Shown here piece by piece: positions 2,392-3,437 of a stretch of 17,334 nt of DNA. Location of the stretch: the IMG/VR virus record IMGVR_UViG_2690316086_000006. The stretch is one strand, 5' to 3'. Made by a program: the position numbers and the translations under genes. Under the pieces are notes generated by a model. That model made no database searches. It saw nothing but the letters and a program-made list of their open reading frames with translations, and had not been told where the DNA came from. Position 1 is the stretch's first letter. Each line of letters opens with the position of its first letter. The stretch comes from a virus (taxonomy: Duplodnaviria > Heunggongvirae > Uroviricota > Caudoviricetes).

Positions 2392-3105
2392 TCAATAATC
2401 AAGCCCTTGCCTGGATACATATCTGTCTGGCGGGAAGCCATAATAGCGGTGAAATACAGAAATAAAGTAGGACCTGCTTGAATAACCGCATTTTTCTGCT
2501 ATAGCCTGTCCATATCCATGCCGGGAACATAACATATTTACAGCAACACGCATCCGCTCTTCCAGCAACAAGCGACTGAACATGCCCCCTTCATTTTTCA
2601 GTTTTGTCTTTAACAAACTCTCACTCATATGCAACTGTAGAGCAATCGCACCAAGCGTCCAGCTTGCTGATATATCTGTCTGAATTATCGCCCTGACTTT
2701 GGCACTTATGCTGGATAAACATCCACTTAAAAACAATGACATCCGTTCATCTGTTTCAAACAGAGACAGGCAGGCCATCATAAGAAACATATCCGTGGCC
2801 TCTCCGGAAAATCCCTGGCTGGTAATTAAAGCCGCAGCCAACGCAGGATTGTTGGGTTCCAGCAACAGGTAAAGCGGAATGTCAGTCAGACGAGTCCTCG
2901 TCAGCTTATGCTGACTTTCCAGATATTGACTTACGACGGATTCGCTTATATCGACAATTTTAACTTTGCCATAATGCATAAGGAAAAGCTCCCTGATGCA
3001 TTTGGTGGCCAGAACGACTGAGCCTGGCTTAAGTGACAACGTATCCTTTTCAAGAAAAATATTAATTGGGGAGCAAACCATGATAACTGAACAGACAACA
3101 GCCAT
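2392..3105 (-). CDS. AraC/XylS-family transcriptional regulator (start uncertain: 3105 or 3081)
   Basis: C-terminal region has the AraC-type double HTH signature (...SRSYFISVFHRYYGFPPDRY); AT-rich relative to neighbours; no clear Shine-Dalgarno at either start. Confidence 0.65.
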   Translation of the reverse strand: MAVVCSVIMVCSPINIFLEKDTLSLKPGSVVLATKCIRELFLMHYGKVKIVDISESVVSQYLESQHKLTRTRLTDIPLYLLLEPNNPALAAALITSQGFSGEATDMFLMMACLSLFETDERMSLFLSGCLSSISAKVRAIIQTDISASWTLGAIALQLHMSESLLKTKLKNEGGMFSRLLLEERMRVAVNMLCSRHGYGQAIAEKCGYSSRSYFISVFHRYYGFPPDRYVSRQGLDY

Positions 3106-3225
3106 TATAATTTTACTTTCATTAGCAATTGGTTAGCTCAATTATAGCCCCAAAAGGTAAATTATCATCAACACATAAGCAAAGGACTGACAGGTGTCGC
3201 CCCCCCACCAGCCGCCCATTCACCA

Positions 3226-3253
3226 CAAATAAAAAGCCTTCAGGACTGAAGGC
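3226..3253 (-). terminator. Putative intrinsic terminator after the small post-tR' ORF
   Basis: Minus-sense GCCUUCAG...CUGAAGGC hairpin followed by UUUUUAUUUG; overlaps the stop of the 3240-3437 ORF. Confidence 0.45.
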
Positions 3254-3437
3254 GTCTGTAACAACCGCACTGATAGTCTGCCAGACCCGCCATAACAAGC
3301 TGGGTCAGTATTAACTGGCAGCGTTCGCGTGAAAGGTAAGTATTCTGCGCAACCTCCCCGACTGTCGCCGGTTCGGTAACGCTTAATTCATTAAACACCA
3401 CTCTGGCGGTTTCGGTCATATCCTGCTGTTTCAGCAT
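3240..3437 (-). CDS. Hypothetical small protein (65 aa, MLKQQDMTETARVVFNELS...), first ORF after tR'
   Basis: Internal ATG at 3437 with AAGGGA Shine-Dalgarno; the longer track ORF to 3560 would run through the terminator hairpin. Confidence 0.4.
   Translation of the reverse strand: MLKQQDMTETARVVFNELSVTEPATVGEVAQNTYLSRERCQLILTQLVMAGLADYQCGCYRRLQS

Follow-up and report, generated by a model that had tools for sequence, protein, structure and literature searches.

A probable psrB allele behind the late antiterminator gene of a lambdoid prophage of O26-type enterohaemorrhagic Escherichia coli

The stretch of viral DNA considered here (IMG/VR record IMGVR_UViG_2690316086_000006, Caudoviricetes; 17,334 nucleotides [nt], hereafter the window) specifies, at positions 2392–3105 on the minus strand, a 237-amino-acid (aa) regulator of the AraC/XylS family. 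This gene is very probably an allele of psrB residing in a lambdoid prophage of O26-type enterohaemorrhagic Escherichia coli (EHEC), and its product an activator of the GadX/GadW/YdeO/AppY branch with a role in the acid resistance of the host. We call it psrB because its product is identical to that of an O157:H7 gene at 234 of 237 positions, because published primers for Z2104 match it exactly, and because Z2104 has been equated with PsrB. PsrB is an already characterised regulator in a well-known setting. With the small open reading frame (ORF) directly upstream it behaves, judging from a comparison of related loci, as a mobile cargo cassette. The original prediction, made from the letters of the window, had placed an AT-rich AraC-family regulator of the EHEC PatE/Psr type at 2392–3260, an interval which comprises the psrB ORF, a 134-nt spacer upstream of it and the end of the small ORF.

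Identity of the regulator

The translated product matched two Pfam helix-turn-helix (HTH) profiles above their cutoffs: HTH_AraC (50.3 bits in two stretches; cutoff 26.6) and, together with it over residues 155–230, HTH_18 (39.8 bits; cutoff 33.6). Membership of the AraC family, as predicted, is thereby borne out. A beta-rich N-terminal domain of approximately 105 aa is followed by a double-HTH DNA-binding domain at about residues 130–232. The nearest solved structure is the DNA-binding domain of GadX (3mkl; residues 134–233, 7e-19), and the next nearest are Rns, CsvR and ToxT. An AlphaFold2 model based upon a 12-sequence alignment was of low confidence (mean predicted local distance difference test score [pLDDT] 59, predicted TM-score [pTM] 0.38).

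The product of EDL933_RS10010 [WP_000301797.1], encoded by prophage CP-933O (O-island 57) of E. coli O157:H7, is 98.7% identical to the window protein; relative to EDL933 the latter carries the substitutions A103V, H196Y and I202V. A primer pair for Z2104, listed for O-island 57 genes with a stated product of 158 bp (PMC4763077), defines an exact 158-bp amplicon at window positions 2688–2845 (minus strand) and another inside EDL933_RS10010, with 0 chance matches expected. The coordinates of the primers for Z2100, Z2101, Z2102 and Z2108 fit the genes for DUF968, RusA, Q and the esterase, respectively, with a constant shift of 13,064 bp between two EDL933 assemblies. It is in two reviews that Z2104 is identified as PsrB (PMC10877973, PMC8565820).

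RefSeq labels the window gene “helix-turn-helix domain-containing protein” [WP_000301785.1], and in older records psrB is shortened to 195 aa. We favor the ATG at 3105 as the start codon because it includes the N-terminal motif M..VCSVI, which is common to PsrB, PatE, YdeO, AppY and GadW. The start of the 195-aa version (ATG at 2979) was rejected since the 42 N-terminal residues that it omits align with PatE, YdeO, AppY and GadW.

While the prediction of an EHEC regulator of this general kind was correct, the gene is of the Psr type and is not an orthologue of patE. Judging from its position, ECs_0287 of strain Sakai, a 247-aa “transcription regulator” of prophage Sp1, corresponds to PatE (Z0321, O-island 8). 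Like PsrB this candidate is a prophage-borne AraC-type activator of acid-resistance genes, and it aligns with the window protein over its full length, including the N-terminal M..CSVI. The identity is, however, 37%, and ECs_0287 belongs to another prophage and another position, at the end of a degraded prophage rather than behind Q; it is therefore a paralogue.

Among the regulators of E. coli K-12 the full-length identities are 35% to GadW, 31% to YdeO and 29% to AppY of the DLP12 prophage, and the C-terminal domain is 40–41% identical to those of GadX (41%) and EnvY. GadW, YdeO, GadX and AppY belong to the same AraC/XylS sub-branch as PsrB, and all regulate gadE and the acid fitness island. 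The window protein falls far below the NCBIfam equivalog cutoffs for YdeO (108.5 bits versus 348, aligned over the whole length) and for GadX (87 bits versus 500, aligned over the C-terminal half), and both names were rejected.

CP-933O displays the same gene order as the window (RusA, DUF1133-type Q, 65-aa ORF, psrB, tRNAs, TerB, DUF3927, esterase, lysis, PerC/Pch) and the same promoter region and leader, the DNA being nearly identical from the 65-aa ORF through the tRNAs. It differs in its Q allele, in the hairpin behind Q, in integration site and in host lineage, the window being O26-type; and two tRNAs are annotated behind its psrB, as against three in the window.

PsrA (z1789), which is of the same family and has a reported identity of 90% to PsrB, has been assigned in reviews to CP-933N (O-island 50). 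The published reverse primer for quantitative PCR of z1789 carries one mismatch to psrB and implies a KLKNEGH motif. Alleles with this motif, which by the primer would be of the PsrA type, share about 91% of their residues with the window protein; the latter has the PsrB-type KLKNEGG. We did not recover a PsrA sequence from O157: when two other alleles served as queries, the best O157 location was psrB every time. The published length of O-island 50 (47,315 bp) exceeds that of the resequenced island by an estimated 1.2 kb, which is roughly the size of the cassette described below, and the lack of psrA in the resequenced CP-933N may be an assembly or stock difference.

Prophage context

Positions 2000–4300 of the window are 100% identical to sequences in many non-O157 EHEC chromosomes (O26:H11 11368, O103:H2 12009, O45, O111), and O26-type genomes match the window over its full length. 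In the annotated record of O26:H11 11368 the region is a lambdoid prophage with integrase, replication, Q, lysis, head and tail genes. Along the direction of late transcription the genes are those for DUF968, RusA, a DUF1133-type Q, the 65-aa ORF, psrB, tRNA-Ile and two copies of tRNA-Arg, followed in strain 11368 by TerB, DUF3927, SASA esterase, holin, lysozyme, a PerC-family regulator, terminase, and head and tail genes. The regulator had been placed in the late operon next to a tRNA cluster, and both statements proved correct: psrB is on the strand of the late genes, with Q before it and the lysis genes after it, in a slot which in Stx phages is filled by stx, and three tRNAs (2363–2112) begin 28 nt past its stop codon. 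The features of this block are as follows.

2080–2099, minus strand: terminator hairpin and T-run closing the psrB-tRNA block (8 pairs, 6 of them GC; -14.6 kcal/mol, z = -3.8)
2112–2363, minus strand: tRNA cluster with CAT, Arg-TCG and Arg-TCT (ARAGORN, Rfam tRNA matches, RefSeq annotation)
2392–3105, minus strand: psrB allele, 237-aa AraC/XylS-family regulator (intact ORF, Pfam HTH profiles, identity to the EDL933 gene)
3141–3168, minus strand: candidate sigma-70-like promoter, ATGATA, 16-nt spacer, TATAAT (10/12 match; conserved in alleles)
3226–3253, minus strand: intrinsic-terminator hairpin and T-run; overlaps the 65-aa ORF at its stop codon (terminator scan and folding)
3240–3437, minus strand: 65-aa ORF, putative small winged-helix protein (RefSeq WP_000917770; phrog_331, function unknown, 8e-37)
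3561–3581, minus strand: strong hairpin CCACC-GGAA-GGTGG and U7, about 100 nt downstream of Q (-19.4 kcal/mol, z = -5.2)
3679–4209, minus strand: Q-like late antiterminator of the DUF1133 type (Pfam DUF1133, 367 bits; Phage_antitermQ, 35.1 bits, cutoff 26; phrog_753 “anti-termination protein Q-like,” 3.5e-74)

The tRNA cluster may be co-transcribed with psrB; a weak promoter-like site is also present at 2402–2374, overlapping the psrB stop codon. The first of the three tRNAs (2288–2363, minus strand) is a Met tRNA (CAT) according to ARAGORN and tRNA-Ile in RefSeq. The trio fits the ileZ-argN-argO cluster which precedes stx in Stx phages; here it precedes TerB instead.

The 65-aa ORF and the psr cassette

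In every related locus that we examined, the 65-aa ORF lies directly upstream of psr at a fixed spacing of 134–136 nt. Its product aligns to positions 35–98 of the 111-position phrog_331 profile and shows weak TrmB/MarR-like winged-helix Pfam matches which fall under the cutoff. A 106-aa frame is open in the window from a GTG at 3560, and in CP-933O from an ATG; its N-terminal stretch is hydrophobic. The ORF may therefore extend to 106 aa, its true start being uncertain.

The pair of genes is found behind antiterminators of quite different types. In the window and CP-933O it follows a DUF1133 Q; in other genomes it follows PF06530 Q proteins of 121–123 aa, sometimes with intervening cargo; in NCTC9112 and others it follows a 229-aa PF06323 Q; and in phage phiSTEC1575-Stx2k, where the psr allele is 91.6% identical, it follows a 250-aa antiterminator and lies between Q and tRNA-stx2AB. 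Conversely, prophage Sp6 of Sakai and the potC-adjacent prophage of resequenced EDL933 (CP-933N), which share the DUF968-RusA-Q-TerB-esterase layout, have no such cassette: neither annotation nor tblastn revealed a psr homologue in them, and Q adjoins TerB. The separate acquisition of psrB that had been predicted is therefore upheld, since the cassette stands behind at least four Q types and is absent from otherwise similar prophages; this is far better support than GC content can give. With a terminator upstream, a conserved promoter-like site (predicted), a terminator downstream past the tRNAs and variable presence among similar phages, the 65-aa ORF and psr together have the anatomy of a mobile cargo cassette, that is, a moron.

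One might suppose that the phrog_331 ORF and psr constitute a two-component regulatory cassette in which the small protein controls psrB transcription or PsrB activity, and the leader, which has no Shine-Dalgarno (SD) sequence, adds a post-transcriptional switch. Were this so, acid resistance and secretion would be gated by a signal from the phage side. We consider the proposal improbable; the constant linkage could reflect mere inheritance as one block.

Expression signals

A hairpin at 3226–3253 had been predicted to act as a terminator and psrB to be expressed separately from its neighbors, and both proposals hold as far as the anatomy of the region allows. The hairpin (GCCTTCAG-TCCT... at 3253–3236, then TTTTTATTT) is terminator-like in our scan; it has seven pairs and a loop of 4 (TTTTTATTTG) and folds at -11.1 kcal/mol (z = -2.25 versus shuffles). 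In other psr alleles the stem and T-run are preserved while the loop is changed. From its placement it would insulate psrB from upstream transcription.

Between this hairpin and psrB lies the candidate promoter. Its TATAAT and a TTGATGA block are invariant in seven psr alleles whose coding regions differ by 8–10% in protein, and nearby bases vary. Transcription is predicted to start near 3134, which would give an AU-rich leader of approximately 29 nt, for which no unusual structure is predicted (z = 0.48). As had been noted from the letters, a Shine-Dalgarno sequence is lacking: the 20 nt before the ATG are CTAATGAAAGTAAAATTATA, and the best anti-SD duplex (+0.4 kcal/mol) is the weakest among the 32 window genes scored, the others ranging from -2.9 to -14.5. 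The SD-less leader is also kept in six other psr alleles.

The strong hairpin at 3561–3581 could serve as a tR'-like terminator for the transcript from the late promoter. In CP-933O a different GC hairpin with T7 occupies the matching position, as expected for a terminator of the tR' type.

Composition, selection and spread

The description of psrB as visibly more AT-rich than its neighbors fared less well. Its GC content (0.440) is below that of the tRNA/TerB side (0.517 for 1000–2391) and of the Q side (0.474 for 3106–4600), yet it ranks only 10th lowest among 31 window genes (mean 0.472, standard deviation 0.054, z = -0.6). GC at third codon positions (GC3) is average at 0.454 (mean 0.468), and 17.8% of all 714-nt segments have an AT content at least as high; a local minimum of 0.41 occurs at the promoter and 5' end. 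GC and GC3 were rejected as uninformative evidence of separate acquisition.

Against alleles with a synonymous divergence (dS) of about 0.2, the ratio of nonsynonymous to synonymous substitution rates (dN/dS) of psr is 0.22–0.26 overall and 0.15 in the DNA-binding half; purifying selection therefore acts upon PsrB, and the gene is no decaying remnant. Among 5426 complete E. coli genomes, 726 have a psr-like gene (at least 80% query coverage), and the median among these carriers is 2 copies. They are mostly EHEC and other Shiga toxin-producing lineages (O157, O26, O103, O111, O145, O45 and O104:H4), with some enterotoxigenic E. coli and the neonatal meningitis strain S88. At least 1000 contigs carry the exact window protein.

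The first 42 codons of psrB (2980–3105) differ at only 2 of 126 nt from the Stx2k-phage allele and one further allele (L007), with a dS of 0.03 versus 0.15–0.33 in the rest of the gene. This 5' end is probably a recombination mosaic. Exceptional conservation of the 5' region was considered and set aside, since the low divergence is less clear against another allele (L013) and the promoter region has no such pattern.

Function and proposed mechanism

O157 PsrB binds at the promoters of hdeA (-132 to -45) and of gadE, raises GadE and YhiF, and through these lowers type III secretion by the enterocyte effacement locus (LEE) (reviews PMC10877973, PMC8565820, PMC4456613; model PMC3355084). It also increases survival at pH 2.5–3.5 and passage through the mouse stomach (PMC10877973, PMC8565820, PMC4456613). 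Carried over from this 99%-identical protein, the window PsrB would turn on gadE and hdeA, and with them glutamate-dependent acid resistance, and indirectly damp LEE secretion. The DLP12 prophage protein AppY, a relative with 29% identity, is likewise a direct activator of gadE (PMC10057817), which indicates a recurring prophage route into the acid-resistance island.

The following scheme might be proposed. In the lysogen the terminators behind Q and behind the 65-aa ORF would stop transcription arriving from upstream, and psrB would be transcribed from its own conserved sigma-70-like promoter near 3168–3141, possibly with the tRNAs, as far as the hairpin at 2099–2080. Translation from the SD-less, AU-rich leader would keep the level of PsrB low. 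PsrB would then bind the gadE and hdeA promoters, and the rise in GadE and YhiF would switch glutamate-dependent acid resistance on and LEE type III secretion down. Upon prophage induction, Q-modified polymerase would read through the whole psrB block.

Several points weigh against psrB as a working acid-resistance regulator in this prophage. Transfer of the O157 function would have to span the substitutions A103V, H196Y and I202V. Without a Shine-Dalgarno sequence psrB could be poorly translated, and the promoter-like sites in its region number three where 2.7 are expected from shuffles, that is, no excess over chance. According to reviews, deletion of psrB alone in O157 has little effect upon secretion, while psrB in trans represses secretion in a psrA mutant; one copy may thus contribute little, since its deletion matters little unless psrA is absent too. 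Finally, according to reviews a prophage with a psr gene also carries genes for Pch (PerC-like) regulators and loci for type III effectors. The PerC-family gene of the matching O26 prophage, which lies outside the window (positions 9419–9733 of the O26:H11 11368 locus, L001), is identical to that of CP-933O, but we found no effector genes at the right end of this prophage. The reported link between psr genes and effectors may therefore not hold everywhere.

Based upon such points psrB might be a silent or nearly silent passenger, poorly translated for want of a Shine-Dalgarno sequence and repressed through its AT-rich promoter region. It would then add little to host physiology in this lineage, since other psr copies, as well as GadX, GadW and YdeO, would make it redundant. 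The weakest anti-SD pairing in the window, the GC minimum at the promoter and 5' end, the median of two psr-like copies per carrier genome and the slight phenotype of the single O157 deletion would all fit. An intact frame under purifying selection, promoter hexamers and a leader conserved across diverged alleles, the identical protein on so many contigs, and a review's report that induced PsrB raised acid survival in O157 argue otherwise, and we regard a silent gene as unlikely.

Quite unlikely is a psrB which has no working promoter of its own and is expressed, like stx, only in the Q-dependent late transcript upon induction. Its strand and position are those of stx-type cargo, the 91.6% allele of phiSTEC1575-Stx2k sits between Q and tRNA-stx2, and promoter-like matches are no more numerous than chance would have it. 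The perfect TATAAT and its upstream hexamer, however, are invariant in seven alleles amid variable bases, a terminator directly precedes this promoter candidate, and in O157 Psr effects have been reported in uninduced lysogens carrying cryptic prophages.

Very unlikely, lastly, is a cassette which regulates mainly the phage itself (the tRNAs, TerB, esterase, and late or lysis genes) and affects the host only as a side effect of overexpression: psrB does lie right behind Q and ahead of the tRNAs and late genes, and has as its constant partner a small DNA-binding-like ORF of the phage family phrog_331, but direct binding to the host gadE and hdeA promoters is reported for the 99%-identical protein of O157, the nearest chromosomal relatives (GadW, YdeO, GadX, AppY) all control the acid-resistance island of the host, and the downstream genes vary widely (stx2, TerB, holins), which argues against a fixed phage target.

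Other features of the window

Between the DUF3927 and esterase genes an Rfam match to the small RNA (sRNA) STnc100 is located at 1320–1492 (minus strand; 104.7 bits, gathering score 47). The Northern probe for the EHEC sRNA EvrS (PMC11774850) maps to 1384–1429 with four mismatches and the EvrS primer for 3' rapid amplification of cDNA ends (3'-RACE) to 1437–1457 exactly. Since probe and primer fall upon the STnc100 match, EvrS appears to belong to the STnc100 family, with a diverged copy approximately 900 nt downstream of psrB.

At 1645/1646 the window lacks 150 bp present in O26 11368 (L001 15497–15646) and in all of the best-matching complete genomes (17,484 versus 17,334 bases). TerB thereby loses its 3' end and DUF3927 its beginning, which leaves a fused reading frame (1610–2014). 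Either a deletion particular to the strain or an error of assembly could account for the missing bases.

The early-left end of the prophage carries a cell-division inhibition module of the Qin/Kim type, consisting of the antisense sRNA DicF (Rfam, 75 bits; 16102–16153, plus strand) upstream of dicB (16328–16516, plus strand). Two toxin-antitoxin pairs are found in the early region: ParD/ParE (6046–6608, plus strand, opposite to its neighbors) and HigB/HigA (14170–14834, minus strand, beside the repressor region).

Significance

PsrB and its relatives have been described since 2011–2015 as prophage regulators which act through the GadE circuit of acid resistance and in this way adjust the type III secretion of EHEC. 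The gene which RefSeq calls a “helix-turn-helix domain-containing protein,” and which older records shorten to 195 aa, can now be named psrB. Non-O157 EHEC (O26, O103, O111, O45, O145) have its cassette as well, and an Stx2k phage carries it between Q and stx2; Psr-type control of acid resistance is therefore probably common across Shiga toxin-producing E. coli.

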